From positions 2,696-66,695 of the forward strand of contig JAHJHC010000088.1 of the NCBI GenBank assembly GCA_018824145.1: DNA of 64,000 bases, in the 5' to 3' direction. Source of the DNA: Candidatus Omnitrophota bacterium. Lineage in GTDB: Bacteria > Omnitrophota > Gorgyraeia > Gorgyraeales > Gorgyraeaceae. A model generated the notes under the pieces. That model saw only the letters and a list, made by a program, of their open reading frames with translations. It did no database searches and was not told the origin of the DNA. Of this stretch, positions 15,201-39,399 are shown one piece after another. Numbering within the stretch: position 1 is the first letter of the stretch; the number at the start of each line of letters is the position of its first letter. A program made the position numbers and the translations under genes.

Positions 15201-15315
15201 GTCTAGATGGCTGATCTTGATTTTCCTGTGTTTTTATACATTTTTTTATATTATTTATTTCTGGATCTATATGAAGCTTAGGAATAAGGTATTGTTGGGC
15301 GGTAGGAGAAAATAA
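12211..15315 (+). CDS. 1034-aa tandem fusion of two cobalamin-binding rSAM modules with a C-terminal transmembrane anchor
   Basis: Two copies of the B12-binding region (LVISPPWGIEDPPLGLACLSTYL; LLVNLPPWSQENPHIGIGFLSSYL) and two rSAM motifs (EWSRGCIGHCSFC; EWSRGCKGRCAFC). The C-terminus carries a hydrophobic helix (WLILIFLCFYTFFYIIYFWIY). Confidence 0.8.
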   Translation: MKEFKDKKEVPDIFLVISPPWGIEDPPLGLACLSTYLKIRGFKPEVFDFNIYMYDNANQSYKYLWEMGSANDWRGKGASNEIFSIFKKEIDYCVEKIVSSGAEIVGFSMLSNSQDLITAKIIKEVKTKRPNIKIILGGISISVSEQRAFFEAKGNNLIDAYIIGEGEESLCQLLQAIKSAQSLEGIQGVLIYKDDNVIHSPRILKENLDEFPFPTFEEFDFNMYLNKGNSLAMEWSRGCIGHCSFCAFKTSSYMFRKKCPELIVKTVEYYIKKYKTNHFSLVDSAINGDLKYLEEICNLLIRYKLNVKFSALAIPRRDMSKRLLGIMKEAGFIRIEYGVESGSDKVLKEMKKVYASRDVENIIKATHETGIATVIYLIIGFPGEGEVEFAETIEFLKSNSEYIDLVKSINPLYLMAGSHIYKHHKHYGITLPAVDSDIKWFIGRENTYKIRVERVNKIRYLLKEIGVKYHSKDNQFEREVSFSQVSSDRTLDFLLVNLPPWSQENPHIGIGFLSSYLRSKSVALKVLDLNKAFFINNPDFRMLWHVENKNFWSNKDTFPLILEIFQKDIEKSVEDILSFDCAVLGFSVVDPKEKLTIEFIERIKEKSPDKKIILGGPATSTPEQRKIFLDAAGEDIDVFVVGEGEETLFYLLEMFLRKKDIKITGECYIKNNGRWVHRGVRPMIALDGIPFPTYEEFDLNLYGKSLLVEWSRGCKGRCAFCKNYRLFSMYRFKPADCIVQELKYHKEKYNICEFTVTDSILNGDLENLNQVCNKVILDNLKIKWTGQIAPHKYMGFDFFKKMKEAGCFKLQIGLESGSNRVLRSMRKTFTAEISEMNIRFAKKAGIETEIFVMVGFPSETERDFKETYNFIRRNSNYIDTIKSINTLHLIAGTDIYENREKYGIKPLPEKDWHYLWETYDGNIYNLRKEKTQRLLDLSNDLGLKVMEANIQEGKENIVETIIGKQDLKEKILILKESVNSLQRLPQKRMITRRSRKLSRWLILIFLCFYTFFYIIYFWIYMKLRNKVLLGGRRK

Positions 15316-15337
15316 TCTCAAATAAACGGGGAGAGTT

Positions 15338-16285
15338 ATGACAGGAGACAAAATCAAGTTTTCAGTAGTAGTGCCTTTTTATAATGAAGAAGACAATGTA
15401 AAAATACTCCACAAGGAATTGATTTCTGCGCTGAAAGGGCATGAATATGAGTTAGTTTATGTTAATGACGGAAGCACAGATTCTACTTATTCTAGACTTA
15501 TAAAAGAGACAGAAGACCTTAAGCCGCCGCATGCAAAAATAATTAATTTCACTAAAAATCTTGGTCAGTCGTTTGCGTTCAAGGCAGGATTGGATAATAC
15601 TTCTTTTGATACAATAGTTTTTATAGACGGGGATTTACAAAATGATCCTCGCGATATCCCTTTGTTATTAGAGAAATTTCTAGAGGGATATGATTTGGCC
15701 CAGGGTATAAGGGCGAGGAGGAAGGACCCGTTTTTTTCTAAGATAGTGCCTTCAAAAATAGCCAATTTAATTTTAAGAATTTTATGCGGAAGTAAATTTA
15801 AAGATTTGGGATGTTCTTTAAAAGTATTTTCTAAAAAGATTACCGATAGATTGTTTTTTTATAAAGGGTTTCACAGGCTCCTACCCGTATATTTTTCTTT
15901 AAAAGGCGCTAAGGTTACAGAAGTAAAAGTAAACCACAGAAGTCGAAAATCAGGAAAGAGTAAATATGGATTTTCAAGGACGATAGAAGTGTTATTTGAG
16001 GTTATAAAGATAAATTTTTTCGAGAAAGGCTCAAATAATTTTATATATATTACAATAGGTGTGGGAATGACTTTGGTTATCTTAAGTTTTTTAGTGGGGT
16101 TCAATTTTATTAAATATATCAATTTATACTCCTTTATGGCCCTTCTTTCTTTTGTATTAGGGCTATATCTTTTTGTAATAGCATCAAGTCTTTATATTAT
16201 AAGGTCTTTTTATAGTTATTATCAAAAATATAAAGAATTTGATGCATATTTATTATCAGTTGTAAATTATAGTCAAAATCCCTAA
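15338..16285 (+). CDS. GT2 polyprenol-phosphate glycosyltransferase (GtrB/ArnC/DPM1-like) with C-terminal TM helices
   Basis: N-terminal FSVVVPFYNEE, then DGS...D and DGDLQNDP motifs typical of GT-A family GT2 dolichol-phosphate sugar synthases, followed by two C-terminal hydrophobic helices. Confidence 0.8.
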   Translation: MTGDKIKFSVVVPFYNEEDNVKILHKELISALKGHEYELVYVNDGSTDSTYSRLIKETEDLKPPHAKIINFTKNLGQSFAFKAGLDNTSFDTIVFIDGDLQNDPRDIPLLLEKFLEGYDLAQGIRARRKDPFFSKIVPSKIANLILRILCGSKFKDLGCSLKVFSKKITDRLFFYKGFHRLLPVYFSLKGAKVTEVKVNHRSRKSGKSKYGFSRTIEVLFEVIKINFFEKGSNNFIYITIGVGMTLVILSFLVGFNFIKYINLYSFMALLSFVLGLYLFVIASSLYIIRSFYSYYQKYKEFDAYLLSVVNYSQNP

Positions 16286-16286
16286 T

Positions 16287-17756
16287 ATGATTGCTGTTGG
16301 AAAGGACAATTTTATGCAAGGAATAAAGTTTTGTTTGGTTTTCCCCCCTTATAAAGAAAGTGAAGATATCTTTTTCTTGAAAACCGCGAGAAATAATTTA
16401 GGGAAGATTCCTCCTCTTAGTTTATTGGCTGTGGCTGCAATATTAGAGAAATACGGTGCTGAGGTTAAGCTTATAGATGCAAATGCGTCAGGGCTTTCTG
16501 TAGATGAGGTGATCCAAACTGCTGTTGAATTTTCTCCTGATTTTTTGGGATTCACCTTATCTACATATCAGTTCCATTTTACCTTAGAATGGATAAGGAA
16601 GCTTCGGTCGAAAGTTGACGTTCCTGTAATAGTAGGTGGTCCTCATGCAAGAATATATCCTCGGGAGGTATTAACTCATGAGTGCATCGATTATTGTGTT
16701 ATGGGGGATGCAGAAGATATATTGCCCCAGTTGACCTATTCATTAGTCGAGAAAAAGAGCTTAACTGAAGTAGGGGGGATAGCATATAAAAATAATGAAG
16801 GAGATGTAAAGTCAAACGACTTTTCTTTGTATATTGACAGTTTAGATGGTGCCCCGTTTCCTTCGCGGCATTTATCGGACAATTCTTTATACTATTCTTT
16901 GATATCTAAATATAAAAACTTTACGGCAATGACTTCAAGCAGGGGATGTGTTTTTCAGTGCACATTTTGTGATAATCATTGTATTCCTTACAGGGCTATG
17001 AGTCCTAAGAGGGTTGTGGATGAGATGGAGATTTGCAAAAAAGATTTTGCTATAAATGAAATAGATATGTTTGACGGGGTTTTTTCTGTTAATAAAAAGA
17101 GATTGTTGGAAGTAAGCGATCAAATAGTAAAAAGAAAGCTTAAAATATATTGGTCATTTAGGACCAGGGCTGATTTGATTGATAAAGAGACGCTAACGGC
17201 ATTAAAATCAGCGGGATGTATAAGGATATATTATGGAATAGAAAGTGGTTCCGCTAAGATTTTAAAAAATATTAAGAAGAATGTGGAAATCGAAAATATT
17301 AAATATATACTGAAATTGACAAAAGGCGCAGGGATAGATACCTTTGGATATTTTATGGTTGGAAATTATGGGGAAACCTATGAGACGATCAGCGAGACTA
17401 TGGATCTAATGCTATCTCTCCCCTTGGATTACATACAGATAGCTCCGATATTTTATCCTCCTAATACTGAGGTTTATTCTGATTTAATGAAGGTAATAAA
17501 ACGGGATTATTGGAAGGACTATACCGTAGATTCCGAGTTAGAGATGGAATTCCCTATAATAGGGACTGATTTTAATAAAAGTCAAATCCATTCTATTGTC
17601 AGAAAAATGTATTTACGTTTTTATTTAAGGCCTAAATTTATTATCAAATTCATATTTAGTTTAAAATCTTTTAGCCAATTAGCACGATCGGTAAAGGCAG
17701 TTTTTGATATGGTCAGAGAATCTGTAATAGACAATTCTGCAAATAAGGAGTTTTAA
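16287..17756 (+). CDS. Cobalamin-binding (class B) radical SAM protein
   Basis: B12-binding-like N-terminal region (IVGGPHA, MGDAED) and rSAM motif SSRGCVFQCTFC. Confidence 0.8.
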   Translation: MIAVGKDNFMQGIKFCLVFPPYKESEDIFFLKTARNNLGKIPPLSLLAVAAILEKYGAEVKLIDANASGLSVDEVIQTAVEFSPDFLGFTLSTYQFHFTLEWIRKLRSKVDVPVIVGGPHARIYPREVLTHECIDYCVMGDAEDILPQLTYSLVEKKSLTEVGGIAYKNNEGDVKSNDFSLYIDSLDGAPFPSRHLSDNSLYYSLISKYKNFTAMTSSRGCVFQCTFCDNHCIPYRAMSPKRVVDEMEICKKDFAINEIDMFDGVFSVNKKRLLEVSDQIVKRKLKIYWSFRTRADLIDKETLTALKSAGCIRIYYGIESGSAKILKNIKKNVEIENIKYILKLTKGAGIDTFGYFMVGNYGETYETISETMDLMLSLPLDYIQIAPIFYPPNTEVYSDLMKVIKRDYWKDYTVDSELEMEFPIIGTDFNKSQIHSIVRKMYLRFYLRPKFIIKFIFSLKSFSQLARSVKAVFDMVRESVIDNSANKEF

Positions 17757-17788
17757 AGGATAAAGACATATCCATAGGGTTTGTTGCC

Positions 17789-19237
17789 ATGCGTAAAAAA
17801 AGAAGGATTTTATTAATAGTAATTTTTTTTATTGGGATAAGTTTACGTTTGGCTTCTTTTTCTTTTAATCAGGACAACTTGGATATGGATGATGACGAAC
17901 CTTGGTCGAGAATAAATTTAGCAATGGTCTGGCTTGAATCTGGAGAAGGGATTGTCGATTTAAATTTCAGCCCTCTTTATACTTATATGGTATCGACATT
18001 GCGGTTTTTTGATAAAAAAAATTTTATTTTACTTACACGTCTTGTAAGCCTTGTTTTCGGTAGTCTTTTTATATTTTTATATTTTAATTCAGTAGAGAAG
18101 ATATTTAATGCAAAGATAGCTTATCTTTCCGCTTTTTTTGTAGCCGTTTACCCTTTACACATTCATCTAAGCACGCTTTCTTTACCCGAGGTCATAGCTT
18201 GTTTCTTCTTATTCGCGTCTTTATTTTTTCTGCATCAATTTTTATATGTTTCGGATAGATGGACTAATCTGATTATCTCCGCATTATTTTTAACATATGC
18301 TTGTATGCTGCGATTCGAGTGTTGGCTGTTTATTTTAATATTTTCCACATGGATTTTTGTTAAACGTAAAATTTCTAAGGGGTTATTGATATTTTTGTTT
18401 TTGTCTTTAATTTTTCCTTCGGTATGGATGTTTGTGAATTATAGATATACGGGCAATCCCGTAAATTTTGTATTTATTTCGGCAGAAGCTACCAAGTATT
18501 TTATGTCTACGGAAGATTTATCGTTAAGAGATAAAATCTGGGGATGGCCCAAGGTATTGTATTATACGTTAGGCAGCCCTTTATTTATACTTTGTTGTAT
18601 GGGTTTTATCGTCCCTCTTGTTTTTAGGAAATTTAGAAATGTATTTTATTATTCATTTGCGATATTCTTTTCAATTTATATGGTTAAGTCTATTAATAAT
18701 ACTTATAGTTTCGATATTTGGAGGTATAGTTTGCCATTAGGCTTATTTTTTATTCCCTTTGCTGGTGTAATTATCTACTCATCGCCGGCTTTTTTTCAAA
18801 GAAAAAAATATTTTATAATGTTCATTTGTCTGCTTGTGTTTTTTGCTTGCATTAAAACGTCATATGTTTTTTCTAAAGGAAGTCAAGCGCCTGAAACTTT
18901 AAATAAAGTGGTGGAATGGATAAAAGCGAATATTTCTGATTCAAACAAAAGAATTTTACTGGAAATATCGCCGAGATATCCTTTGAATCACCCCTATATA
19001 GTAATAAATTCCAATCTTAAATCTTATCAGCACCTCGGATTTTTTTCTACTGGCATGGAAGAGTCTGATGAGAAGTGGGATGAATTTCTCTGTTTGCTTG
19101 GAGATGCAAATTATATACTAGTCAATAAAGAAGAAAGTTTTTTCTCTGAAATATTTTCCGAAGAAAAAGAAATCATAGAAAAGAATGTTATAAAGGTATT
19201 CGAAAATGAAGATTGGTTTATTTGTAAACTTGAATAA
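17789..19237 (+). CDS. Polytopic membrane protein, GT-C superfamily glycosyltransferase (ArnT/PMT-like)
   Basis: More than 10 predicted TM helices. Has an acidic DDDE motif in the first extracytoplasmic loop. Sits directly downstream of a polyprenol-phosphate sugar synthase gene. Confidence 0.55.
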   Translation: MRKKRRILLIVIFFIGISLRLASFSFNQDNLDMDDDEPWSRINLAMVWLESGEGIVDLNFSPLYTYMVSTLRFFDKKNFILLTRLVSLVFGSLFIFLYFNSVEKIFNAKIAYLSAFFVAVYPLHIHLSTLSLPEVIACFFLFASLFFLHQFLYVSDRWTNLIISALFLTYACMLRFECWLFILIFSTWIFVKRKISKGLLIFLFLSLIFPSVWMFVNYRYTGNPVNFVFISAEATKYFMSTEDLSLRDKIWGWPKVLYYTLGSPLFILCCMGFIVPLVFRKFRNVFYYSFAIFFSIYMVKSINNTYSFDIWRYSLPLGLFFIPFAGVIIYSSPAFFQRKKYFIMFICLLVFFACIKTSYVFSKGSQAPETLNKVVEWIKANISDSNKRILLEISPRYPLNHPYIVINSNLKSYQHLGFFSTGMEESDEKWDEFLCLLGDANYILVNKEESFFSEIFSEEKEIIEKNVIKVFENEDWFICKLE

Positions 19238-20693
19238 GCGTATAATCATTGCCCTTTTGATTTTGTTTTTTTTCATAATAAGGGCATGGTTTTTTCTGAA
19301 TACCGATAATCTTTATGGAGCCATACCTTCTCAAAAAATAATTCATTCCCAGTTGATTCTGGAAAATCCATTCGATGTATGGGATGTGAACCCGTTATTA
19401 TACCCTTATCTTTTGGGCGCATGGATAAAAGTTACAAACGATATACTCGTATCTCCGCGAATTTTAAGTCTTGTGTTTTCAGTGTTAATGGTTGTGCCTT
19501 TTTTTAAGTTTTGCGAGATCTTATTTAGGGAAAAGAGAAAGGCAGTGCTGGCTACGGTTTTATTGGGTATTTTTCCTGTGCATATTATGCAAAGCGTAGT
19601 TTCCATGGAAGAAGTCTTTTTCTATTTCTTTTTATTTTTTTCGCTCTACTTTTTTTTGAAATATAAATATGAAAAACAGAATATAAAGATTTTGATTGTA
19701 TCGGCGCTTTTACTCACTATTTCTTGCGGATTTAGGTTTGAGGGATTTTTGTACCCGGCTTTACTTTTTCTCTTTCTTTTAGGAAAGGATAAAAAGCCGT
19801 GTTTGATTTTTCTGGGTATTTCTATGGCTGTTCCGGTTTTATGGGGATTAATAAGTTATGTTAAGTGGCATAATCCTTTTTCTTCGTTTTGGATACAAGA
19901 TGCCGTTGCTTCTTTGGAAATCGAATTGTACAATCAAAAATTTAAGAATGTTTTCGAAAGTGTTATGACTTGTTTACCTTTAGCCGCAATAATTTTTGGT
20001 TTTTTGGGGCTATTGGCAGGCTTAAAAAATAAAAGGTTGTCTGTTGTATATTTATGTTTCTTTGTGTTTTTAGGCATATTTACATTTAAGATATTAAACA
20101 AGGGGTTGTTGTTTCAGGAGCGGTATGTCCTGGCTTTTTCTATTTTTTTTATAATTTTCATTGCAGAAGGTGTTTATTCTATGCTTGATAGGCTTTCTAA
20201 AGTGTGGATAAGAAACTCTATTGTCGTTATTTTGTGCATGTATTATTTTTTTTATACCGCCCATTTATTTAGAGAAAATGAGTTTTTTGGAATGAAAGCA
20301 CCTGAGGAGATAAGGCATATAATTGCATTATTAAGGGATGAACAGAGAAACGATGCAATTATACTGCTGGATGTAGATATGTTTCATGAGTATCCGGAAT
20401 ATATTAATGTTTCAGCTGGATTTAGCCCAAAGAGGGCCGTAATGCCACTGGTTGAAGAAATAATGCATAGGAGACTTACGCCTGGAACCAAGAAAGAGCA
20501 TACGGAATTCGATAAGAGAATTTTGCGCCTATTAAAGGAAAAGAAGATTAATTACATCCTTTATTGTACTAAGGATGGATATTTAAAATATCTTTTTCCT
20601 TTATCGGGTGATTTGGATCAGATAGAAGGTTCTTACTATAAAAGGATTTTCAAAGGAAATATTTTTTGGTTATATAAAATATCACAGGGCTGA
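19206..20693 (+). CDS. Polytopic membrane protein, paralog of 17789-19237 (GT-C-like)
   Basis: Multi-TM protein. Its first-loop region aligns with the upstream paralog (N-x-DNL ... L-E ... D-x-N-PLxY-Y). Confidence 0.5.
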   Translation: MKIGLFVNLNKRIIIALLILFFFIIRAWFFLNTDNLYGAIPSQKIIHSQLILENPFDVWDVNPLLYPYLLGAWIKVTNDILVSPRILSLVFSVLMVVPFFKFCEILFREKRKAVLATVLLGIFPVHIMQSVVSMEEVFFYFFLFFSLYFFLKYKYEKQNIKILIVSALLLTISCGFRFEGFLYPALLFLFLLGKDKKPCLIFLGISMAVPVLWGLISYVKWHNPFSSFWIQDAVASLEIELYNQKFKNVFESVMTCLPLAAIIFGFLGLLAGLKNKRLSVVYLCFFVFLGIFTFKILNKGLLFQERYVLAFSIFFIIFIAEGVYSMLDRLSKVWIRNSIVVILCMYYFFYTAHLFRENEFFGMKAPEEIRHIIALLRDEQRNDAIILLDVDMFHEYPEYINVSAGFSPKRAVMPLVEEIMHRRLTPGTKKEHTEFDKRILRLLKEKKINYILYCTKDGYLKYLFPLSGDLDQIEGSYYKRIFKGNIFWLYKISQG

Positions 20694-20699
20694 TAAATT

Positions 20700-22577
20700 A
20701 TGTGTGGAATTTGCGGTATAAAAGGATTGTCTTTTAAAGAATCCAGTGTTTATTTGGATGATATGCTTAAAGTCTTATCGCATCGCGGGCCAGATACAGA
20801 AGGTAGATATGCTGAAGAAAATTTATCTATGGGAGTAAAAAGATTAAGTATTATAGATTTAGTTGCGGGGTCACAACCAGTATACAGTGAAGATAAGAGT
20901 ATAGTTTTAGTATGTAATGGGGAAATTTATAATTTTCATTCATTGAAAAATAAGCTTGTCAAAAAAGGCCATAATTTTTATACCGGAACAGATATAGAAG
21001 TTATAGTGCATCTATACGAAGAATCAGGACCAGCGTGTTTAGAGGAACTTGAAGGCATGTTTGCCTTTGCAATATGGGATAAAAAGAAAAAGCTTCTTTT
21101 TATCGCGAGAGATAGATTGGGGATAAAACCACTTTATTATTTTAATAAAAATGGATTATTTGGTTTTGGTTCAGAGCTGAAAGCATTATTGACATTGCCA
21201 TTTGTCCCTAAGATTTTAAATCCTGATGTAGCAGATTTATATTTTTCTTTAGAATATGTCCCTTCACCTTTATCGATTTTTAGAGACATTTTCAAATTAA
21301 AGCCGGGTCATTATCTGATTTATAAAGATTCACAGTTAGAGATCAATCGTTATTGGGATTTAAAATCCTTGGATATAGATAGAAATATAAGAATCTCTGA
21401 AGCAGAAGACAGATTGAAATATCTTCTAAGAAATTCCATAAAAACCCATATATTAAGTGATGTTCCTTTGGGTATATTTTTGAGTGGAGGGATTGATTCG
21501 AGTACTTTGATTGCCTTTGCAAGAGATATGTTCCCGCAGGATCTTAACACTTTTTCTATGGGGTTTGCTGATAAAGGATTCGATGAATCGAAATACGCGG
21601 GAGCTGTTTCGCGACATTTCAATACACAACATCATAGTTTTATCTTTACAATAAAAGATTTAATAAATATCTTTCCGGAAGTCACTGCTGCTTTAGATGA
21701 ACCATTTGCTGATATGTCTATTTTTCCGACCTATTTACTTTGTAAATTTTCTCGCCAGTTTGTTAAGGTGGCGTTGTCCGGAGAAGGAGGGGATGAGCTG
21801 TTTATGGGATACCCGACTTATCGCGCCCATCGATATATGCAGTTGTATCAAAAAATCCCGGAATATATAAGGAAATCTATAATAACTCCGTTTGTGAATC
21901 ATTTACCGGTTTCGCTTGAATATTTTAGCCTGGATTTTAAATTGAAACAATTTCTGAAAGCCCAATCTTCACAAAGCCCTTATTTGCAGCATCTATTATG
22001 GATGGGTTCATTTACGTCTTCAGATAAAGAAGACCTCTTTCAAGGAGACTTTAGGAAGAAAAGCTCTGAAAAATTATTGGAAGATTATGTCAAGTCACTG
22101 CTGGATACTAAAGGAGCGCCTTCGGGTTTAAAAGGGATTCAGTATTTGGATATTTTTAGCTATTTATCGGAAGATTTGCTGGTGAAGGCTGACAGGGCTA
22201 GTATGGCTGCCTCGTTAGAGACAAGGGTCCCATATTTAGATTATAAATTAGTAGAGTTTATCTGGAGTCTACCGTCACAGTTGATCTTTCAAAAGCGATT
22301 GTTAAAACATCTAATGAGAAATATTTTACCTTCAAGTATTATAACACGGCCCAAAAAGGGATTTTCATTGCCTTTTTCAAAATTGATATTAGATAAGGAT
22401 GTTTTTATATTATTCGAAGGATTATTCAGTAAGGATTTTATTCTTCGGCAGAATATATTTAATTATAAATATATAAGAAGGCTTCTTGATGAGCATATTG
22501 CTGTGAAAAAAGATAATCGCAAAAAACTGAGTACTTACATGATGTTCCAGTCTTGGTATAAAAATTATTTCTCTTGA
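20700..22577 (+). CDS. asnB: Asparagine synthetase (glutamine-hydrolysing), AsnB family amidotransferase
   Basis: N-terminal MCGICGI, placing the Ntn nucleophile at Cys2. PP-loop motif SGGIDSS is present. Length is 625 aa. Confidence 0.9.
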   Translation: MCGICGIKGLSFKESSVYLDDMLKVLSHRGPDTEGRYAEENLSMGVKRLSIIDLVAGSQPVYSEDKSIVLVCNGEIYNFHSLKNKLVKKGHNFYTGTDIEVIVHLYEESGPACLEELEGMFAFAIWDKKKKLLFIARDRLGIKPLYYFNKNGLFGFGSELKALLTLPFVPKILNPDVADLYFSLEYVPSPLSIFRDIFKLKPGHYLIYKDSQLEINRYWDLKSLDIDRNIRISEAEDRLKYLLRNSIKTHILSDVPLGIFLSGGIDSSTLIAFARDMFPQDLNTFSMGFADKGFDESKYAGAVSRHFNTQHHSFIFTIKDLINIFPEVTAALDEPFADMSIFPTYLLCKFSRQFVKVALSGEGGDELFMGYPTYRAHRYMQLYQKIPEYIRKSIITPFVNHLPVSLEYFSLDFKLKQFLKAQSSQSPYLQHLLWMGSFTSSDKEDLFQGDFRKKSSEKLLEDYVKSLLDTKGAPSGLKGIQYLDIFSYLSEDLLVKADRASMAASLETRVPYLDYKLVEFIWSLPSQLIFQKRLLKHLMRNILPSSIITRPKKGFSLPFSKLILDKDVFILFEGLFSKDFILRQNIFNYKYIRRLLDEHIAVKKDNRKKLSTYMMFQSWYKNYFS

Positions 22578-22621
22578 TGAGGATTATGCGGGAGAAAAGA
22601 ATGGATGGAGGCTGATTTGTT

Positions 22622-23785
22622 ATGAATATTTTGATGGTTCACCCTCATGATATATTTGATAAGTCCGAGCCCTGGACAATAAGGATTAAAAGCATAGCTA
22701 AGGAGGTCGTCGAAAGGTCTCACGAAGTAAAATTATGTTATTTTCCTTTAACGATCAATGAAAGGTACTTGCCCAAAAAAATAAATTCGATAGAGCTGAT
22801 TCCTTTAGATAGAACGCCTTCGCCTAAGGCATTTATTTTGAATATCATAAGACTTATAAAATTATGTAAATGGGCAGATGTCGTCCATTTTCAAAAGTGT
22901 CAGCATTATGCTGCTATCCCTACGTTAATCGCAGCATATATTGCCGGGAGGACGTTACATTACGATTGGGATGACTGGGAGGAGAAGATATGGTATGAAT
23001 CCTGTGGTAGATCTTTAAACTCAAGATTTATAGGCTTCTCTTTTAAAGTGCTGGAAAGGTTTATTCCTTTATTGGTTGATTCTGTTTCATGCGCAAGCAG
23101 TCATTTGAAATATCTGACTCATAAATTTGGAGTGAAGAAGGAATGTATATTTGATGCCCCTGTAGGAGCTGATTTAGTAAAATTCAAGCCTGATTTAGAT
23201 GGGAGGGGGATAAAAGAGAGACATGATATAAGAGGTGAGCTGGTTTTATATATAGGTCAGCTTCATGGAGCTCAATATGTCAATTTATTTATAAAGTCAG
23301 CCAACATAGTTTTACACAGATACCCGAATGTGACTTTTATGATTGTAGGGGAAGGGTTTTTAGAAAATAAATTAAGAGATCTTGTCTATAGTTTAGGTAT
23401 AGACGATAGAGTTGTTTTTACCGGAAGCGTACCTCATGATGATATCCCTTACTATATCGCAGCTTCAGATATCTGTGTAGCTGCTTTTATGGAAACAGAG
23501 GTAACAATATGTAAAAGTCCTTTGAAGATTGTAGAATATTTGGCAAGTGGCAAGCCTATAACAGCAAGTAACGTAGGTGAAGTTAGAAGAATGGTAGGAG
23601 GCGTAGGGGTTTTGGTTGAGCCTTCTAGCCAGCATTTTTTAGCAGATGGCATTATTCAGCTTTTAAAGGATAAGGATTTAAGAGGTAGATTAGGAAAAAA
23701 TGCAAGACGTAGGGCAGAAGAAAAATACAATTGGAGCCGTACCTCTGAGAATATTTTGAAGGCATATCAATCTCAACTCACATAG
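22622..23785 (+). CDS. GT4 (GT-B fold) glycosyltransferase
   Basis: C-terminal E-x7-E-like region (KIVEYLASGKPITASNVGEV) typical of GT4/RfaB-type enzymes. Confidence 0.8.
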   Translation: MNILMVHPHDIFDKSEPWTIRIKSIAKEVVERSHEVKLCYFPLTINERYLPKKINSIELIPLDRTPSPKAFILNIIRLIKLCKWADVVHFQKCQHYAAIPTLIAAYIAGRTLHYDWDDWEEKIWYESCGRSLNSRFIGFSFKVLERFIPLLVDSVSCASSHLKYLTHKFGVKKECIFDAPVGADLVKFKPDLDGRGIKERHDIRGELVLYIGQLHGAQYVNLFIKSANIVLHRYPNVTFMIVGEGFLENKLRDLVYSLGIDDRVVFTGSVPHDDIPYYIAASDICVAAFMETEVTICKSPLKIVEYLASGKPITASNVGEVRRMVGGVGVLVEPSSQHFLADGIIQLLKDKDLRGRLGKNARRRAEEKYNWSRTSENILKAYQSQLT

Positions 23786-23792
23786 GATTTTT

Positions 23793-24893
23793 GTGAAAGT
23801 TATTTTTGTTACAAGAGAAGGTCATGGCCTATCTGGCGCAAGGGTAAGATGTTATAACTTTGCCCGTGTATTGAGACGGTATGGAATAACCACAGAGGTG
23901 TTTTCTTTTGCTGATAATTTAGGTGCTAAATACGGCGAGAAAGAGTTTGAAATGTCTTATTTAGAGAAACTCAGATATAATATCAAGGCATTTAAACTAC
24001 TGTTAAGAGAAGAAAAGGATGCGGTTTTTTTTATACAGCGATTAAATTATCATACTATAGCTCCTTTCATGGTTTCTTTATTAAAAAAAAATAGATTTAT
24101 ATTTGATTGTGATGACTGGAATATACGGGAAGATCCCATATATTATTTTAATTTATTTCCTAGTTCTAAGATGGAATTTTTAACACGTAAGATTACTAGA
24201 TATGCAAACATTTGTACTGTGGCAAGTGTATTTTTAAAAGATTATTTATGTAGATTTAATAAGAAGATTTATTATCTTCCTACAGGAGTGGATACAGCTA
24301 TTTTTAATCCCAACGACAGTCATAATAACAGTTCAAAAATTAGTTTTTCTTGGATTGGTACTTTGTACCATAAGGAAATGCAGGAAAATATTAGATTTAT
24401 TTTAGCTTGCTTTTCTGAGTTAGCCGATAGATATCGTAACATTTTTTTAAATCTTGCTGGCGAGGGGGTATATTTTCGTGAAATCAGCCGGTATGTAGCT
24501 ACTCTGCGATATAGAGACAGAATAATGATAAATAATTGGATCCCACCGGATAAAATCCCCGACCACCTTTCGCATATCGATATTGGTCTTTTGCCTCTGA
24601 TCCAGCATACAAAATTCAATAAATCAAAAAGCCCCACCAAGCTTTTTGAATACATGGCAATGGGAAAACCCACTGTTTCAAGCAATATTGGAGAAGCAGC
24701 GCATATTATTCATAATGGTGAAAATGGTTTTTTGGCAGGCACAAAAGAAGAATTTGTGGCCAGGATGGAAGAGTTAATTAATGATCCTATTTTGTGTAGG
24801 AGCATTGGGGATAGCGCTAGGAAAAGTGTAGAAGAAAAGTATTCTCTTAATGTGTTAAGCAGGCGCCTCTACGATATATTAAAAACAATATAA
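23793..24893 (+). CDS. GT4 (GT-B fold) glycosyltransferase
   Basis: KLFEYMAMGKPTVSSNIGE motif near the C-terminus, within a GT-B layout. Confidence 0.75.
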   Translation: MKVIFVTREGHGLSGARVRCYNFARVLRRYGITTEVFSFADNLGAKYGEKEFEMSYLEKLRYNIKAFKLLLREEKDAVFFIQRLNYHTIAPFMVSLLKKNRFIFDCDDWNIREDPIYYFNLFPSSKMEFLTRKITRYANICTVASVFLKDYLCRFNKKIYYLPTGVDTAIFNPNDSHNNSSKISFSWIGTLYHKEMQENIRFILACFSELADRYRNIFLNLAGEGVYFREISRYVATLRYRDRIMINNWIPPDKIPDHLSHIDIGLLPLIQHTKFNKSKSPTKLFEYMAMGKPTVSSNIGEAAHIIHNGENGFLAGTKEEFVARMEELINDPILCRSIGDSARKSVEEKYSLNVLSRRLYDILKTI

Positions 24894-25840
24894 TGATAAA
24901 TATATCCATTATAATTTTAACTTTTAATAGCTCTGAGCATATTAAATCTTGTCTGGATTCTGTATTTAGACAAAGTTATCGGAATTTTGAGGCGATTTTA
25001 GTAGATAATGGTTCAATAGATGACACCTTATCATTGGTAAAAAGGGATTATCCAAAAGTTAGATTGGTTGAGAATAAAAGAAATCTTGGTGCTTGTGCGG
25101 CAAGAAATAAAGCTATTGGTCTCGCTAAAGGGAGGTGGATTCTGACCTTGGATTGCGATGTTATTTTAAAAAAGGATTTTATTGAGAAAATAGTCGGATT
25201 TATAGGAGAGGCTGGAGAGTCAATAGGCATGTTTCAACCGAAGATCTTACAAATAGATAGAAAGACTATTTATTCTTGTGGGATATATCTTTCTAATATG
25301 AGAAGATTCCATGACATTGGCAGAGGGATTCCTGAAAATGGTAGATTTGACATGACAAAAGATATTTTCGGTGCTTGTTCTGCTGCGGCGGTGTACAAAA
25401 AACAGATGTTAGAAGAAATAAAAGAAACCACGGGTTATTTTGATGAAAGATTTTTCTTCTTAGTAGAGGATGTGGACTTAGCATGGCGGGCACAAAGAAA
25501 GGGTTGGGGAGCAAAATTTTATTCTGAAGCAGTTTGTTATCATTATGGCAATTCTTCAGGGTCGGATAAAAAACTCAGGCAATTTCTTTCTTTTCGCAAT
25601 CGATATTACACCATAATAAAAAATGAGGGCCTTAGAAAATATATTAAGAAATTTTTTCCATTATTGTGTTATGATTTTCCGAGATTAGTATATTTGTTTT
25701 TTACTAATAAGTATATTTTAAGAACAGTTAAAGATAAAGTATCTATATCCCTGAAGGGTGAATTTCTACATGTTGCTATAACTCTCCTGTTAACTCACCG
25801 ATTACTTGACAGGCTGTTGTATGTATGGGAAAATTATTAA
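24893..25840 (+). CDS. GT2 glycosyltransferase (rhamnosyltransferase-like)
   Basis: ISIIILTFNSSEHIKSCLDSV...VDNGSIDDT and a DCDV motif. Paralog of the gene at 40963-41856. Confidence 0.8.
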   Translation: MINISIIILTFNSSEHIKSCLDSVFRQSYRNFEAILVDNGSIDDTLSLVKRDYPKVRLVENKRNLGACAARNKAIGLAKGRWILTLDCDVILKKDFIEKIVGFIGEAGESIGMFQPKILQIDRKTIYSCGIYLSNMRRFHDIGRGIPENGRFDMTKDIFGACSAAAVYKKQMLEEIKETTGYFDERFFFLVEDVDLAWRAQRKGWGAKFYSEAVCYHYGNSSGSDKKLRQFLSFRNRYYTIIKNEGLRKYIKKFFPLLCYDFPRLVYLFFTNKYILRTVKDKVSISLKGEFLHVAITLLLTHRLLDRLLYVWENY

Positions 25841-26631
25841 CAATGGATTACGCTATAGAGATAAAAAACCTAAAGAAAATATTTTTTGAAAGAAAAGGAT
25901 TTACTGAAATACTGCGTTGTCCTTTTAAGAGAAAGGAAGGCAAGCTTGTTTTATATAATGTTAATTTAGGCATAGAAAAGGGTTCCATATTTTGTCTTTT
26001 GGGGCCAAACGGAGCAGGTAAGACTACACTTATAAAAATAATATGTACTTTGATACTCCCTACGGAAGGGAAGGTTTTTGTAAATGGAGTTGATGTAGAA
26101 AAAGAAGAATGGAGGGCTAAGGGTTTTATTGGGCTTGTGACAGGAGAAGAAAGGAGTTTTTTCTGGAGGCTTTCAGGTAGAGAAAACCTGCTTTTTTTCG
26201 CCTCTTTATATAATATCCATGGAAAAAAAGCATCTAAGAAGGTTTCCGAAGTCTTAGAAATAGTTAGGATAGATGACCCTAAAAAGAGATATCAGGAATA
26301 TTCCGGTGGAATGAAACAGAGATTGGGAATTGCAAGAGCCCTTTTAGGAAACCCTGAAATTCTTTTAATGGATGAGCCTACTAAAAGTTTAGATCCTATA
26401 GCAGCCGAAGAATTAAGAAAATTTCTAAAGGAAAAACTCTGTAGAGAATTGAAAACAACGATTTTTTTTACTACACATCAACTTAACGAGGCAGAGAAAC
26501 TCGCTAGTAAGATTGCTATAATAAATAAAGGTGAAATCAAGGTTTCAGGGACATTAGATGAGCTTATGAGTGGAGTGAAGCAAGATAACGTAGATTTAGA
26601 TAAGATGTATGCCTATTATGTCAATTCGTAA
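25825..26631 (+). CDS. ABC transporter ATP-binding protein (Wzt/TagH-like)
   Basis: Walker A GPNGAGKTT, ABC signature LSGGMKQR, Walker B LLMDEPT. Confidence 0.9.
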   Translation: MGKLLTMDYAIEIKNLKKIFFERKGFTEILRCPFKRKEGKLVLYNVNLGIEKGSIFCLLGPNGAGKTTLIKIICTLILPTEGKVFVNGVDVEKEEWRAKGFIGLVTGEERSFFWRLSGRENLLFFASLYNIHGKKASKKVSEVLEIVRIDDPKKRYQEYSGGMKQRLGIARALLGNPEILLMDEPTKSLDPIAAEELRKFLKEKLCRELKTTIFFTTHQLNEAEKLASKIAIINKGEIKVSGTLDELMSGVKQDNVDLDKMYAYYVNS

Positions 26632-27397
26632 AATATTATCATTTATCCGCAAAGATGCAATAATAAACATGAGTTATAGAACTATTTTTTTGATGTCTTT
26701 TGTAAGAATAATATCTTCCACGTTGATTTTCTTTTTTATGGCTAAATTATTTCGCAAACCGGAATACTTCCCGTTTGTATTAATAGGCATTGCATTTACC
26801 TCATATTTATACACTTCTCTCGGAACTTTTTCAAGTAGATTTAGAGACGAACAAGCTGCAGGAACTTTAGAGGCTATGTTGGTAGCGCCGACTAAAACAA
26901 AGGATATATTTATAGGGATCGGGGCATGGGATTATTTGTTCACTACTTTTAGAGTGTTTATATATATATTATTGGGGGTTCTGTTTTTTGGGGTTAATTT
27001 AAATAATGCTAATATATTAGCAGCAATATTGATACTATGTCTCAGTATAATTTGTTTTAGTTGCATGGGAATTAGTGCCGCAGGTCTTGTTTTAATCTTT
27101 AAAAGAATGAATCCCGTGACATGGATAATAGGAGGATTTACTGGTCTTGTTGGAGGAGTATATTTTCCTGTAGAGATATTGCCGATATGGATAAGGGGTA
27201 TCTCATATATACTACCGCTTACATATTCATTGAAAGGACTTAGGGGTGCTCTGCTTTATGGCAATTCTATCAGAGAATTGATGCCAGAGATATTACTATT
27301 GTGTATCTTTATAATTGTTTTATTTCCACTAAGCACATTAATTTTTAAAAAAGCAATGAAAAAAACAAAAATAGATGGTAGTCTCGTGCATTATTAA
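26609..27397 (+). CDS. ABC-2 type transporter permease (Wzm/TagG-like)
   Basis: Six predicted TM helices in 262 aa. Start overlaps the ATPase gene. Confidence 0.8.
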   Translation: MPIMSIRKILSFIRKDAIINMSYRTIFLMSFVRIISSTLIFFFMAKLFRKPEYFPFVLIGIAFTSYLYTSLGTFSSRFRDEQAAGTLEAMLVAPTKTKDIFIGIGAWDYLFTTFRVFIYILLGVLFFGVNLNNANILAAILILCLSIICFSCMGISAAGLVLIFKRMNPVTWIIGGFTGLVGGVYFPVEILPIWIRGISYILPLTYSLKGLRGALLYGNSIRELMPEILLLCIFIIVLFPLSTLIFKKAMKKTKIDGSLVHY

Positions 27398-27402
27398 TCA
27401 GA

Positions 27403-27594
27403 ATGCCAGAAAAAGATAATATGGAAATAGAAAAAATATATCCGAAGATTAGTAGATTTAAAGATAACGGCAAACATTATTTCCGGGAAAAAGGCGATAA
27501 CTCTAGTAGTATAGGGGCTATTCAAGAAAATGATGTAATAGGAAGGTTGGAATATGTAAAAGAAGGTGAAGGGCAGAGCAAGAAATATTTGTAG
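27403..27594 (+). CDS. Small hypothetical ORF (63 aa)
   Basis: Open frame only. Hydrophilic, with no recognisable motif. Confidence 0.25.
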   Translation: MPEKDNMEIEKIYPKISRFKDNGKHYFREKGDNSSSIGAIQENDVIGRLEYVKEGEGQSKKYL

Positions 27595-27615
27595 ATAGTT
27601 TAATCTGTATTAGAG

Positions 27616-27649
27616 ATTGCTTCGGCCACCTTTCGGTGGCCTCGCAATG
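27616..27649 (+). terminator. Stable stem-loop (GGCCACC-TTTC-GGTGGCC closed by an ATTGC/GCAAT outer stem) downstream of the ABC genes; possible terminator or rearrangement scar
   Basis: Perfect 7-bp GC-rich inner stem plus a 5-bp outer stem. No canonical U-tract follows. Confidence 0.35.
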
Positions 27650-27770
27650 ACAGGCTTTTAGAAGAGCTGGACCGTTACGGTTTGGAGAGGCATTGGCGAG
27701 TAGGAAACTTTCCTGAAAAAAATCTTCCCAATGAGCCATATATATAATATACTTATGGGGTTTGGTGGGA

Positions 27771-28307
27771 TTTGCAGAAGATTCAGAAAAGTCCATAGGC
27801 ATACTTCAACCAAAGATTTTACAAATAGACCGGAAGAATATTTATTCTTGAGACACATATCTCCCCAATATAAAAAGGTTCCATGACATAAGTAGAGGGG
27901 AGCTTAATAATGGTAAATTCGAGAAGGTAAAGGATATCTTTGGAGCTTGCTCTGCAACGGCACTGTACAAAAGACAGATGTTGGAGGAAATAAGGGAAAG
28001 TACAGGCTATTTTGATGAGAGATTCTTTTTCTTGGTAGAGGATGTAGATTTAGCCTGGCGTGCACAGAGAAAAAGTTGGAAAGCAAGATTCTATCCTGGA
28101 GCAGTCTGTTATCACTATGGTAATTCGTCAGGTTTAGATAAGAAATTTAGACAATATCTGTCTTTTCGTAATAGGCACTATTCTATAATAAAAAATGAAG
28201 GGCTTAAAAATTATTTTAAAAAATTCTTTCCGTTGTTGTTTTATGATATTCCTCGGTTATTATATTTGGTTTTTACTAATCGTTATATCTTAAGAAAAAT
28301 AAATTAA
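27771..28307 (+). pseudogene. Truncated, degenerate duplicate of the 3' 60% of the GT2 gene at 24893-25840
   Basis: Nucleotide and protein collinearity with 25216-25840. Remnant reads SIGILQPKILQIDRK...YS*...FHDISRG...MLEEIRESTGYFDERFFFLVEDVDLAWRAQRK; parent reads SIGMFQPKILQIDRK...MLEEIKETTGYFDERFFFLVEDVDLAWRAQRK. An in-frame TGA at about 27849 disrupts the upstream part. Only the last 109 codons stay open. Confidence 0.7.
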
Positions 28308-28309
28308 AC

Positions 28310-29806
28310 ATGAGATTTTTTAAAGAGTATATTCTGAAAGATAAAATATTTAAAAATTGGCAGATTTTATTAATACTTATGGTTTCTTTATGTTTGCGCC
28401 TGTATCATCTTGGTTATCATGATTTCTGGTATGACGAGATAGGTACAGTGGATTATGCTCAACATCCTTGGAATAATTGGAATGCCCCTTTTTACTGGAT
28501 ATTGCTTCATTTTTGGATAAAAGTTTTTAAAATTTCAGAATTCGGTTTACGTTTTCCTTCTTTAGTTTTTAGTTTTTTTTCTATAATTCTCGTTTTCTTA
28601 ATAGGAAAAAGACTTTTTAATAAGAAGGCTGGCCTTTTAGCTAGCATATTTATGGGGCTTTCTCCTTTTCATATTTGGTATGCTCAGGAAGCACGTGATT
28701 ACAGTATGTTATTATTTTGGGGTACGCTTTCCTCATGGTTACTCCTCAAAGCAATTAAAAAACAAAGATTGAAATCCTGGGTAATCTTTACAATGGTTTC
28801 TATAGCAGGGTTTTACACCAATTATTTTTATACTTTCCTTTTTGTCGCACATATTATTTTTGTTGTTACATTTTTTAAGCGTTTGAAATTAAAACTGAAG
28901 AATTTGATTCCCTTCTTTGTCGTTAGTCTGTGTTTTTCGCTATACTTAAACCGTTTTTTAGGCAAATTTTTTAGTGTCTGGCAGGGTTTTTGGATTCCTG
29001 AACCAGAAGTACGCTCTTTGGTTATTACTATAGAAAATTTTATTCTTGGTTATAACGCCAATTTCCCTTCATATCTCATTGTAAGCATTTTAATAGCAGT
29101 ATTTTTTACCATTGTAATTATAAAATTGAAAGATATCCGGTTTCGACCTGCAATTGTATTTTGTCTATATTTGTTCTTAACCCCCATTGTTTTAGCTTTT
29201 CTTTTTTCAAAAACATTTTTTTCGGTTTATCTTGATCGCGGTTTGATTGTTACAAGTCCCTATTTTTATCTGATATTATCTTTTGGCGTGTTTAGCTTGA
29301 ACAAAAGGTATTTAAGAACAGGTAGTCTGGTTATTTTATTTTCTTTAATTTGCATAGCCCTTTATGGGTATTATATGGATTGGATGCCTACATCTTCTTT
29401 TCATTATACAGGAGTCCATCTTAAAAAATCCATAAAGCCAGTAGTTAAATTTATAGAAGATGAGTTAAGAGTACGAGATAGGATTGTTTTTACTAACGAA
29501 TCAGTACTGCCATCTTTTCGGTTTTATAGTCCCCAAGAAAGATCTTTTCATTTTTTATTTGTACCAGGAGAGGCGTTCGACCCTTTTTCCCAAAGGCCGG
29601 TATATGAAAACAGATATTACCTTTCGACCTATAACTTAAGAGATTTTGAATTTGATAGATTATGGGTTATATCTTGCGATTGGTCAAGAGATGGGAGTTT
29701 AGACGGAAATTCTCAAGCAGTAAAAGATTTCTTGGATAGGAATTTTAGATTACAATTCATCCGAGAATTTGATGGATTATGGGTATTTAGATATGATACA
29801 TTTTAG
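28310..29806 (+). CDS. Polytopic membrane GT-C superfamily glycosyltransferase (ArnT/PMT family-like)
   Basis: More than 10 TM helices. First-loop DE motif (FWYDEIGTVDYA) is characteristic of GT39/GT83-type transferases. Confidence 0.6.
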   Translation: MRFFKEYILKDKIFKNWQILLILMVSLCLRLYHLGYHDFWYDEIGTVDYAQHPWNNWNAPFYWILLHFWIKVFKISEFGLRFPSLVFSFFSIILVFLIGKRLFNKKAGLLASIFMGLSPFHIWYAQEARDYSMLLFWGTLSSWLLLKAIKKQRLKSWVIFTMVSIAGFYTNYFYTFLFVAHIIFVVTFFKRLKLKLKNLIPFFVVSLCFSLYLNRFLGKFFSVWQGFWIPEPEVRSLVITIENFILGYNANFPSYLIVSILIAVFFTIVIIKLKDIRFRPAIVFCLYLFLTPIVLAFLFSKTFFSVYLDRGLIVTSPYFYLILSFGVFSLNKRYLRTGSLVILFSLICIALYGYYMDWMPTSSFHYTGVHLKKSIKPVVKFIEDELRVRDRIVFTNESVLPSFRFYSPQERSFHFLFVPGEAFDPFSQRPVYENRYYLSTYNLRDFEFDRLWVISCDWSRDGSLDGNSQAVKDFLDRNFRLQFIREFDGLWVFRYDTF

Positions 29807-31031: not shown

Positions 31032-31246
31032 CAATCACTCTCGTATTTCCACTTTTAATGGCAGAACGGAATTTTATGGTGAGAAGATTTCTTTTTGAAT
31101 GTACTAAAGAAATAGATTGGAAGGGAATTAATGAGATGGGAAAGAAATTGTTAAATAAACCTAAAAAATCGGCTACAGAATAAATTTTTGAGTCATTCTC
31201 ATGCTCATATGTTAATTCATGCCGCTTTAAAATGAAAAGTTCTCCT

Positions 31247-39390: not shown

Positions 39391-39399
39391 ACCTCAGGT

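Follow-up and report, generated by a model that had tools for sequence, protein, structure and literature searches.

A cobalamin radical-SAM enzyme linked to GT-C glycosyltransferases in a probable cell-envelope glycosylation block of Omnitrophota

The window analysed here is a stretch of 64,000 nucleotides from a Candidatus Omnitrophota bacterium (assembly GCA_018824145.1, contig JAHJHC010000088.1), and its block of genes at 15338-29806 places a cobalamin-binding (B12-) radical S-adenosylmethionine (rSAM) enzyme among glycosyltransferases (GTs), an AsnB-family amidotransferase and an ATP-binding cassette (ABC) pair. We propose that the block is probably a conserved operon-like unit for decorating cell-envelope sugars by way of a lipid carrier. 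Its parts can be identified by family models and folds, its genes are packed as in an operon and keep their order in relatives, and the pairing of the B12-rSAM gene with genes for GT-C membrane transferases recurs widely among other genomes. A first-pass annotation of the sequence had seen in it a polyprenol-phosphate sugar synthase combined with GT-C enzymes, the logic of ArnC/ArnT and Ppm/Pmt, and hidden Markov models (HMMs), folds and synteny now agree on this architecture, which is also that of GtrB/GtrC. The parts and the GtrB-plus-GT-C logic are classical; the coupling of a cobalamin rSAM enzyme to GT-Cs across distant lineages seems to be new, and our literature search returned nothing relevant on clusters that join rSAM to GT-C or carbamoyltransferase genes, or rSAM to glycan genes in Omnitrophota.

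The first enzyme of the block is a GT2 for which motifs, C-terminal helices and solved relatives all bear out the earlier assignment as GtrB/ArnC-like. Its PF00535 match spans residues 9-172, it holds the stretches FSVVVPFYNEE and DGDLQNDP, with the DXD motif represented by DGD in FIDGDLQNDP, and two hydrophobic helices lie near the C-terminus at about residues 235-295. The nearest relative in the PDB is ArnC (3e-36); GtrB sll0501 (5ekp, 2.8e-23) aligns over residues 5-305, membrane helices included, and Pyrococcus DPMS (5mlz) matches at 1.9e-21. Among the NCBIfam models, the best partial matches were to ArnC (127.6 bits) and PgfS (126.1 bits), below the respective equivalog cutoffs of 529 and 500, and PpgS reached 26.9 bits against a cutoff of 370. 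These comparisons suggest that the enzyme belongs to the polyprenyl-phosphate glycosyltransferase group and lies outside every named subfamily.

GT-C active sites face outward and take polyprenyl-phosphate-linked donors. All three multi-helix membrane proteins that had been taken for GT-Cs pass the PMT_2 model, whose Pfam gathering score is 26.1 bits: GT-C 1 marginally at 27.4 bits, GT-C 2 at 37.2 bits and GT-C 3 at 62.2 bits. PDB sequence searches with the three proteins, and profile searches with alignments of their orthologs, gave zero matches. Because the PMT_2 score of GT-C 1 was marginal and a PDB sequence match was absent, we modelled it with AlphaFold from an alignment of 12 relatives, the number found among 5.8 billion clusters for what is a rare family (predicted local distance difference test score, pLDDT, 86.3; predicted template-modelling score, pTM, 0.87). 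The top 42 Foldseek PDB matches of the model were all GT-C enzymes, among them STT3, AglB, PglB, ALG9/12, ArnT, DPY19, Pmt4, Aft and Emb. STT3 matched at 6.4e-9, ALG12 and ArnT each with a template-modelling (TM) score of 0.63, and the STT3, ALG12 and ArnT matches ranged over TM 0.55-0.65. We are confident from this model that GT-C 1 would adopt the GT-C fold, with a multi-helix membrane module and an extracytoplasmic domain; NCBI names the protein "glycosyltransferase family 39." The first-loop DE/DDDE motif ascribed to these enzymes is present in GT-C 1 (DMDDDEPW, with D32 and D36-E37-P38-W39 invariant in four orthologs) and in GT-C 3 (HDFWYDE, the YDE being read from a single sequence) and fails in GT-C 2, whose first loop has a single invariant Asp (D34) and no DE pair. 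Likewise, the described set of three is present in full, except that its third member stands behind a degenerate scar and had no ortholog in any fetched locus when window proteins were compared with all loci. The three appear to be distant relatives (GT-C 2 is 27% identical to GT-C 1, and GT-C 3 is 24% identical to GT-C 2), with GT-C 1 and GT-C 2 alone in the conserved core. Their family and the adjacent GtrB-like GT2 suggest that they use a polyprenyl-phosphate-linked sugar donor.

The B12-rSAM gene at 16287 is wedged between the GT2 and the GT-C genes, as first described. Its product has an N-terminal B12-binding domain followed by a radical SAM core, the features of class B, and its CxxxCxxC motif (C221/C225/C228) is invariant in an alignment of 38 homologs. 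In our comparison of loci, no other gene of the block is as well conserved, and homologs of this one occur at 40-72% identity across many phyla. The best NCBIfam scores are to HpnJ (171.6 bits), ApyD (160.4 bits) and BchE (155.5 bits), all below cutoff (172 against 578 bits for HpnJ), and these outscore the methyltransferase models PhpK (118 bits), TIGR03975 (103.7 bits), HpnR (83 bits) and the TsrM type (43.3 bits), which are also below cutoff; its PDB matches are AprD4 and OxsB. C-methylation, the chemistry suggested as possible in the first-pass annotation, is not specifically indicated for this enzyme. Because HpnJ, ApyD and BchE score best here, and C- and P-methyltransferase models are the best-scoring ones for the paralogs in the upstream array, a carbon rearrangement appears at least as likely as methylation. 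A homolog of the first gene of the window, an HpnJ-like radical SAM enzyme at 157-1101, adjoins the homolog of the wedged enzyme in distant loci at 49-55% identity (L063, L066, L074, L076, at about 12000-12130, and L080, at 1602), which suggests that the two paralogous types of radical enzyme work together.

Conservation of the block was followed in 80 loci taken from contigs at one genome per species, with more added by exact-protein look-ups, and tblastn was run with every window protein against every locus. The order rSAM array, GT2, B12-rSAM, carbamoyltransferase, GT-C 1, GT-C 2, AsnB, GT4a, GT4b, GT2 is that of the closest relatives (L002, L005, L007, L008 and L085), whose B12-rSAM proteins are 58-72% identical to that of the window, and L086 and L087 hold the same parts rearranged. 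The GtrB-like GT2 lies directly upstream of the B12-rSAM gene at 54-57% identity in L005, L007 and L008 and at 41% in L059; GT-C 1 orthologs in close relatives are 38-42% identical, and those of GT-C 2 (33-38%) follow GT-C 1 in L002, L005, L007 and L085. AsnB orthologs are 47-58% identical in relatives and 35-39% in DPANN-labelled loci, GT4a orthologs reach 73% in L002, 67% in L008 and 47% in L083, and in L002 GT4b and the second GT2 have orthologs at 55% and 59%. A NodU/CmcH-type carbamoyltransferase is found in every close relative, and the window is the sole member without it. In all, six or more relatives keep the core order, with proteins that are 33-73% identical, so that the synteny on which the first-pass annotation had staked its reading is real. 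That genes of unrelated pathways came together fortuitously, as the mosaic look of the region (the scar at 27397-28310, split genes, separate modules) might suggest, is highly improbable and is rejected, being contradicted by this conserved order and by a linkage of rSAM to GT-C genes in at least three arrangements.

That linkage is far broader than had been guessed. At 40-46% identity, the B12-rSAM family occurs in metagenome-assembled genomes (MAGs) labelled Myxococcota, Delta-, Alpha- and Gammaproteobacteria, Auribacterota, Woesearchaeota and Nanoarchaeia. Of the 61 loci in which the gene has 2.5 kb or more of sequence on each side, 47 have a GT-C within 10 kb of it, or 48 if the STT3-type enzyme that adjoins the Auribacterota-labelled homolog (L003) is counted; carbamoyltransferase is the partner in 31 of the 61 loci, a GtrB-like GT2 in nine and AsnB in nine. 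Searches by tblastn with the window GT-Cs missed the distant GT-Cs, which were found with a custom HMM and by all-against-all clustering of neighbouring open reading frames (ORFs). In 46 Myxococcota- or Proteobacteria-labelled loci, this clustering identified the commonest neighbour as a membrane protein of roughly 540 aa, divergently oriented from the rSAM gene. Its representative is unflagged by Pfam, about a quarter of 70 homologs carry PF13231, and two of the 70 are named GT39 by NCBI. A model of it (pLDDT 92.3, pTM 0.92) matches solely GT-C folds, with ArnT at TM 0.55, and when its family profile is compared with that of GT-C 1, the two align over the PMT_2 core with a probability of 62%, which is suggestive only. 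These GT-Cs have drifted to a median identity of 40% (minimum 29%) while keeping their position. A minimal unit of three genes, in which the divergent GT-C of about 540 aa and the B12-rSAM gene are followed by a NodU/CmcH-type carbamoyltransferase with no other window homologs nearby, is seen at L004 8322-13162 and in about 45 similar loci (e.g., L026, L028, L040, L048 and L050). The Woesearchaeota-labelled loci L059 and L083 are arranged unlike the window, with a B12-rSAM homolog (40%) flanked by a GtrB-like GT2 (39-41%) and AsnB (35-39%) and with two PMT_2 GT-Cs each, on both strands. Beside the GT-C genes of L059, at 1571-2509, is an LPG_synthase_TM protein (100.3 bits) resembling the flippase domain of MprF, a candidate flippase for a lipid-linked sugar; no equivalent of it was seen in the window.

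All the genes named in the first-pass annotation lie where it had placed them, each on the plus strand (Table 1). Across 12211-27397, the junctions measure -32 to +44 bases on a single strand, and because the spacing is this small or overlapping, the genes of that interval are taken to be co-transcribed; promoter and terminator scans of the block gave only background levels and are silent on its limits.

Table 1. Features of the block (first twelve rows) and of the radical-SAM array upstream of it (remaining rows), in window coordinates.
Feature	Position	Strand	Evidence
GT2, GtrB/ArnC/DPMS type, two-helix C-terminal membrane anchor	15338-16285	+	PF00535 88.8 bits
Class B (cobalamin-binding) radical SAM enzyme	16287-17756	+	PF02310 82.4 bits, PF04055 83.4 bits
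GT-C 1, PMT_2/GT39-like, rare family	17789-19237	+	PMT_2 27.4 bits
GT-C 2, PMT_2/GT39-like	19206-20693	+	PMT_2 37.2 bits, PMT 22.3 bits
AsnB-family glutamine-hydrolysing amidotransferase	20700-22577	+	Asn_synthase 307.9 bits, GATase_7 152.7 bits
GT4a	22622-23785	+	PF00534 91.2 bits
GT4b	23793-24893	+	PF13692 70.5 bits, PF00534 65.5 bits
Second GT2, soluble type	24893-25840	+	PF00535 104.3 bits
ABC ATPase, DrrA/NodI-like, 268 aa	25825-26631	+	PF00005 110.5 bits
ABC-2 type permease	26609-27397	+	PF01061 62.7 bits
Degenerate scar, 0.9 kb	27397-28309	+	blastx to window proteins
GT-C 3, PMT_2/GT39-like, outside conserved core	28310-29806	+	PMT_2 62.2 bits
B12-rSAM cut by window start	1-1101	+	Pfam, NCBIfam
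Triple rSAM-SPASM fusion, 1412 aa	1098-5336	+	Pfam, NCBIfam
B12-rSAM split by frameshift	5363-6777	+	Pfam, NCBIfam
B12-rSAM	6877-8349	+	Pfam, NCBIfam
SAM methyltransferase	8346-9143	+	Pfam, NCBIfam
rSAM-SPASM+B12-rSAM fusion, 1009 aa	9119-12148	+	Pfam, NCBIfam
Double B12-rSAM, 1034 aa	12211-15315	+	Pfam, NCBIfam

The assignment of the gene at 20700 as an AsnB amidotransferase holds. The protein begins MCGICG, with the catalytic Cys2 intact, has the PP-loop SGGIDSS, and scores 482 bits on TIGR01536, above the cutoff of 267; its closest family is TIGR03108, the XrtA/PEP-CTERM exopolysaccharide (EPS) amidotransferase, at 531.8 bits and below the cutoff of 816.9. It is thus, as far as its motifs and scores can tell, a true glutamine-dependent AsnB enzyme. 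A lasso cyclase reading of it was rejected, as that model scored 247 bits (cutoff 525), the glutaminase is intact and the asparagine-synthase score is 482 bits. An ABC-2 permease and a separate ATPase are also present as described, whereas the label "Wzm/Wzt-like" was too specific. The ATPase scores 215.7 bits on TIGR01188 (drrA), below cutoff, and consists of the ABC domain alone, without the C-terminal accessory domain of Wzt, and the DrrB, NodJ and PRK15066 models score about 30-42 bits on the permease, which in the PDB matches an ABCG/H-like transporter best (7e-7). Neither Wzm nor TarG was among the PDB matches listed at E<=1, and no ortholog of the pair was found in the loci of relatives.

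The interval 27397-28310, between the permease and GT-C 3, is a recombination scar and not a gene. It holds a 5′-truncated pseudogene of the second GT2 at 27762-28307, with an in-frame stop, whose 180 aa are 73% identical by blastx to residues 100-279 of the intact protein, and a fragment at 27448-27576 that weakly resembles the S24 protein encoded at 38020 (blastx, E 0.02). A GC-rich hairpin at about 27624-27645 (GGCCACC-TTTC-GGTGGCC) has one copy in the window, and an inverted-repeat search in the scar at default seeds found zero. GC-rich hairpins of this type are common as repeat elements in uncultivated lineages.

How these enzymes might work together can be outlined by analogy. With moderate confidence, we regard the block as that half of a large, low-GC island for the cell envelope which carries out glycosylation, working like the Arn, Gtr or Ppm/Pmt pathways. 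At the cytoplasmic face, the GtrB-like GT2 would take a sugar from its nucleotide-activated form and attach it to polyprenyl phosphate. The B12-rSAM enzyme and AsnB, joined in relatives by the carbamoyltransferase, would then tailor the lipid-linked sugar before it crosses the membrane, the first by carbon rearrangement or C-methylation, the second by amidating a carboxyl and the third by O-carbamoylating a hydroxyl. As soluble proteins, these three must act in the cytoplasm; that their substrate is the lipid-linked sugar, and not the nucleotide sugar or the acceptor, we infer, as we do the nature of the sugar, its acceptor and the role of the pump in this scheme. NodU, TobZ and CmcH carbamoyltransferases and EPS-associated AsnB paralogs act on sugars, and the tailoring of a lipid-linked sugar before GT-C transfer is known from ArnD, which acts on Und-P-Ara4FN, and from the epimerisation of decaprenyl-phospho-ribose (DPR-to-DPA). 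For a radical-SAM reaction on a sugar bound to a lipid, there is precedent at the genetic level in the HpnI/HpnK/HpnJ system and in calditol synthase (PMC13459092). Once flipped across the membrane, the tailored sugar would be passed to acceptors at the outer face of the inner membrane by GT-C 1, GT-C 2 and the loosely attached GT-C 3. The two GT4s and the second GT2 would build or extend a glycan in the cytoplasm, and the DrrAB/NodIJ-like ABC-2 pump, an accessory of this genome, may export or flip a lipid-linked product. The final product would then be an exported, amidated glycan or glycolipid.

Several observations weigh against this scheme. No enzyme of the block, the generic AsnB excepted, reaches a curated equivalog threshold, and the sugar and acceptor therefore cannot be named. 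Neither a flippase of the GtrA, ArnE/F or Wzx type nor an initiating phosphoglycosyltransferase or genes for nucleotide-sugar synthesis were found in the window. The Myxococcota-type loci are without an adjacent GtrB-like GT2, so the rSAM enzyme need not act on the product of that GT2. Many of the loci counted above come from related genomes, and their number overstates that of independent events; the phylum names attached to them are MAG labels taken unverified, several of which look unreliable. Moreover, the array upstream and two modules downstream carry SPASM/PqqD features typical of peptide maturases, and part of the island may serve a peptide. We speculate, more tentatively than for the block as a whole, that the wedged enzyme and its homologs form a family, so far unrecognised, whose members alter a polyprenyl-phosphate-linked sugar at its carbon atoms, either contracting or rearranging the ring, as proposed for HpnJ, or C-methylating it, to make an unusual donor for dedicated GT-Cs that place it on the envelope, and that the rSAM/GT-C module, often joined by a carbamoyltransferase or by a GtrB-like GT2 and AsnB, has spread between bacteria and DPANN archaea; we consider this possible, and no better than that.

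The island in which the block sits is low in GC, at least 42 kb long, and has nearly all of its genes on the plus strand. Bases 1-42000 have 33% G+C against 41% for 42276-64000, and the first gene is already open in frame 1 at base 1, which means that the island extends upstream of the window. The right third (42276-64000) is bacterial housekeeping, with pnp, uppP, ftsK, rodZ, a MiaB-like gene, pgsA and pgpA as well as cinA, recA, htrA, alaS, hisD, lipB and lipA. At the island edge, where G+C changes from 0.33 to 0.41 at about 42000, are a membrane protein of the Wzy_C (O-antigen ligase/polymerase) family at 39736-40947 on the minus strand (87.5 bits) and, beside it, a further GT2 at 40963-41856. 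An Rfam search of the window found no riboswitch or other RNA, and a tRNA search gave no candidate for an integration site. The wedged B12-rSAM protein has a 100% identical counterpart in an NCBI MAG called "Candidatus Omnitrophica bacterium," on a contig of 70 kb, and the same gene block is carried by a Logan contig from run SRR2544004.

Upstream of the block is the rSAM array (Table 1), whose orthologs, 41-69% identical, keep their order on the upstream side of the GT2 in L002, L005, L007 and L008; rSAM arrays are likewise upstream in L085 and L087. One array gene is split, its B12-binding part in ORF 5363-5737 and its radical SAM part in ORF 5755-6777 in a different frame, which could reflect a pseudogene, programmed frameshifting or an assembly error. 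Relatives fuse their radical SAM proteins further, into chains of 1818 and 2286 aa (L005 3571-9027 and L002 2164-9024, respectively). Such very long fusions are in keeping with the giant multi-enzyme proteins that Omnitrophota reportedly tend to encode, inside which rSAM and GT domains are mentioned (preprint 10.64898/2026.06.07.730766). Downstream, the module at 29769-34877 resembles Haft's SynChlorMet/HprK-related cassettes: it encodes an NTP_transf_5 protein (139.9 bits) and a protein that combines U32-like and TPR parts; a P-loop protein in it matches ScmC and the HprK-related kinases A/B, and its rSAM-SPASM enzyme (33585-34877) has a weak, sub-threshold PqqD-like match at the N-terminus. 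A second module, at 36319-39502, looks like one for ribosomally synthesized and post-translationally modified peptides (RiPPs), with a PqqD-domain protein at 36319-36672 (54.8 bits), a radical SAM protein at 36656-37825 whose C-terminus is rich in Cys, and a 54-aa ORF at 37788-37952 with five Cys in its C-terminal half, MPEKKRNKKKKYEAPCLEEVSIQEGGGIATGCSNWRGVHELCSCGCENGGSAVN. It ends with an S24/signal-peptidase-like protein at 38020-38547 and an ABC ATPase in two ORFs, 38661-39059 and 38978-39502.

These neighbours raise the question of whether the block itself belongs to a RiPP pathway, in which the rSAM array would mature a peptide, the GTs decorate it, AsnB amidate or cyclise it, and a DrrAB-like pump export it or confer immunity. 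The SPASM domains of 1098-5336, 9119-12148 and 33585-34877 are what such a pathway would have, as are the PqqD domains, the ScmC/HprK-like protein and NTP_transf_5 downstream; the double B12-rSAM protein comes close to the RiPP C-methyltransferase model TIGR03975 (273 bits, cutoff 282), the 54-aa Cys-rich ORF follows a PqqD-rSAM pair, and the ABC pair is indeed DrrAB-like. The sole candidate precursor, however, lies 8 kb beyond the block, beside a PqqD-rSAM pair, peptidase and ABC genes of its own, AsnB keeps its glutaminase Cys2 and scores as an asparagine synthase rather than a lasso cyclase, and GT-C enzymes take lipid-linked donors outside the cytoplasm. More than 40 B12-rSAM/GT-C loci have no SPASM or PqqD relatives nearby by tblastn with window proteins, and the commonest third partner there is a carbamoyltransferase of the sugar type. 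A RiPP reading is thus supported outside the block and does not explain the sugar and lipid-carrier partners within it, and we consider it unlikely for the block.

A second alternative keeps the lipid and changes its kind: the GT2 would glycosylate a membrane lipid, the wedged enzyme would turn the sugar into a cyclitol-like head group by ring contraction or rearrangement, as HpnI/HpnK/HpnJ and calditol synthase are proposed to do, and the other rSAMs would modify the lipid chains. HpnJ gives the best curated score both for the wedged enzyme and for 157-1101 (182.6 bits), weak matches to Tes (106 bits) and to a ladderane-lipid B12-rSAM enzyme are found in the array, and radical-SAM enzymes have a precedent on lipid-linked sugars (PMC13459092). 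Those family scores are, however, three- to fourfold below their cutoffs, hopanoid or ether-lipid genes were not found in the window, the nearest solved relatives of the GT2 are polyprenyl-phosphate enzymes, and the number of transferases (three GT-Cs, three GT4s and two more GT2s) speaks for a glycan larger than a head group, which makes this reading quite improbable. Less probable still is an ordinary ABC-dependent O-antigen or capsule locus, with a GT4/GT2 polymer built on undecaprenyl pyrophosphate, Wzm/Wzt export, WaaL ligation, Gtr-like side branches and the B12-rSAM gene as a passenger. Two GT4s, a GT2 and an ABC-2 pair do stand in a row, the Wzy_C protein and uppP (at 44418) are close by, a low-GC island is typical of surface-polysaccharide loci, and lipopolysaccharide (LPS) and capsule glycosyltransferases are reported from hypervariable Omnitrophota loci (preprint 10.64898/2026.06.07.730766). 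Yet the rSAM gene is no passenger, as it is the most conserved of all and keeps GT-C, GT2, AsnB and carbamoyltransferase partners across phyla, the ABC pair is neither specific to Wzm/Wzt nor present in relatives, and the window gave no initiating phosphoglycosyltransferase. The head-group and the plain O-antigen readings each leave conserved parts unexplained.

Glycosylation by GT-Cs at the periplasmic face underlies lipid A modification, O-antigen decoration, the mycobacterial wall and protein O- and N-glycosylation, and to our knowledge, wherever the lipid-linked donors have been studied, any editing of them is the work of simple hydrolases or epimerases. If lipid-carrier glycosylation is indeed what the block performs, envelope sugars not yet seen, whether C-branched, carbocyclic, carbamoylated or amidated, would be predicted by the pairing of cobalamin rSAM enzymes with GT-Cs, and radical chemistry would be extended to lipid-linked sugar donors by this pairing. 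It is found in lineages of very small, host-dependent cells (Omnitrophota and Woesearchaeota-labelled MAGs), where surface structures likely mediate attachment, and its three-gene version in Myxococcota- and Proteobacteria-labelled loci would be a compact, testable system. Even if the chemistry proves ordinary, many proteins now annotated only as "B12-binding radical SAM" or "GT39" gain a well-supported context.

Comparison with known systems shows which of their features the block shares. With Wzm/Wzt and TarGH it has in common an ABC-2 membrane domain and a separate ATPase beside glycosyltransferases, although the pair scores best as DrrA/DrrB/NodIJ, resembles ABCG/H transporters in structure, lacks the carbohydrate-binding C-terminal domain of Wzt and is not conserved. 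The HpnI/HpnK/HpnJ system, which makes the hopanoid cyclitol-ether side chain, and calditol synthase likewise put a sugar on a lipid before a proposed radical-SAM rearrangement; the wedged enzyme falls well short of the HpnJ cutoff, hopanoid genes are absent from the window, and the lipid here would most likely be polyprenyl phosphate, from which the GT-Cs pass the sugar on. Ppm1/Pmt protein O-mannosylation (actinobacteria, eukaryotes; GT39) resembles the block in its PMT_2/PMT model matches and in a DPMS-like donor synthase, but the GT-Cs of the block have no MIR domains, and the fold match of GT-C 1 to Pmt is partial (TM 0.35-0.53), with STT3, ALG12 and ArnT matching better. Gtr (GtrA/GtrB/GtrC) O-antigen glucosylation and the Pgf system of Streptococcus mutans (PgfS, PgfM1, PgfE and PgfM2) also set a GtrB-type synthase beside one or two GT-Cs. 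PgfS is the second-best curated match of the GT2 (126 bits) and GtrB aligns with the whole protein, including its membrane helices, whereas the block has neither a GtrA flippase nor a PgfE epimerase, leaves the equivalog cutoffs unreached, and contains the rSAM and AsnB enzymes, joined by carbamoyltransferase in relatives, that those systems are without. In the Arn pathway (ArnC, ArnD, ArnE/F and ArnT), which modifies lipid A with aminoarabinose, an anchored GT2 loads undecaprenyl phosphate, the lipid-linked sugar is edited in the cytoplasm and a GT-C transfers it at the periplasmic face; ArnC is the nearest solved relative of the GT2, and ArnT ranks with the best structural matches of the GT-Cs. 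No ArnA, ArnB, ArnD or ArnE/F domains occur in window ORFs of at least 150 aa, and the GT2 scores 128 bits against the ArnC cutoff of 529. In place of the Arn editors, the block would employ a B12 radical-SAM enzyme and AsnB, assisted in relatives by a carbamoyltransferase, and two to three GT-Cs would do what one does in the Arn pathway.

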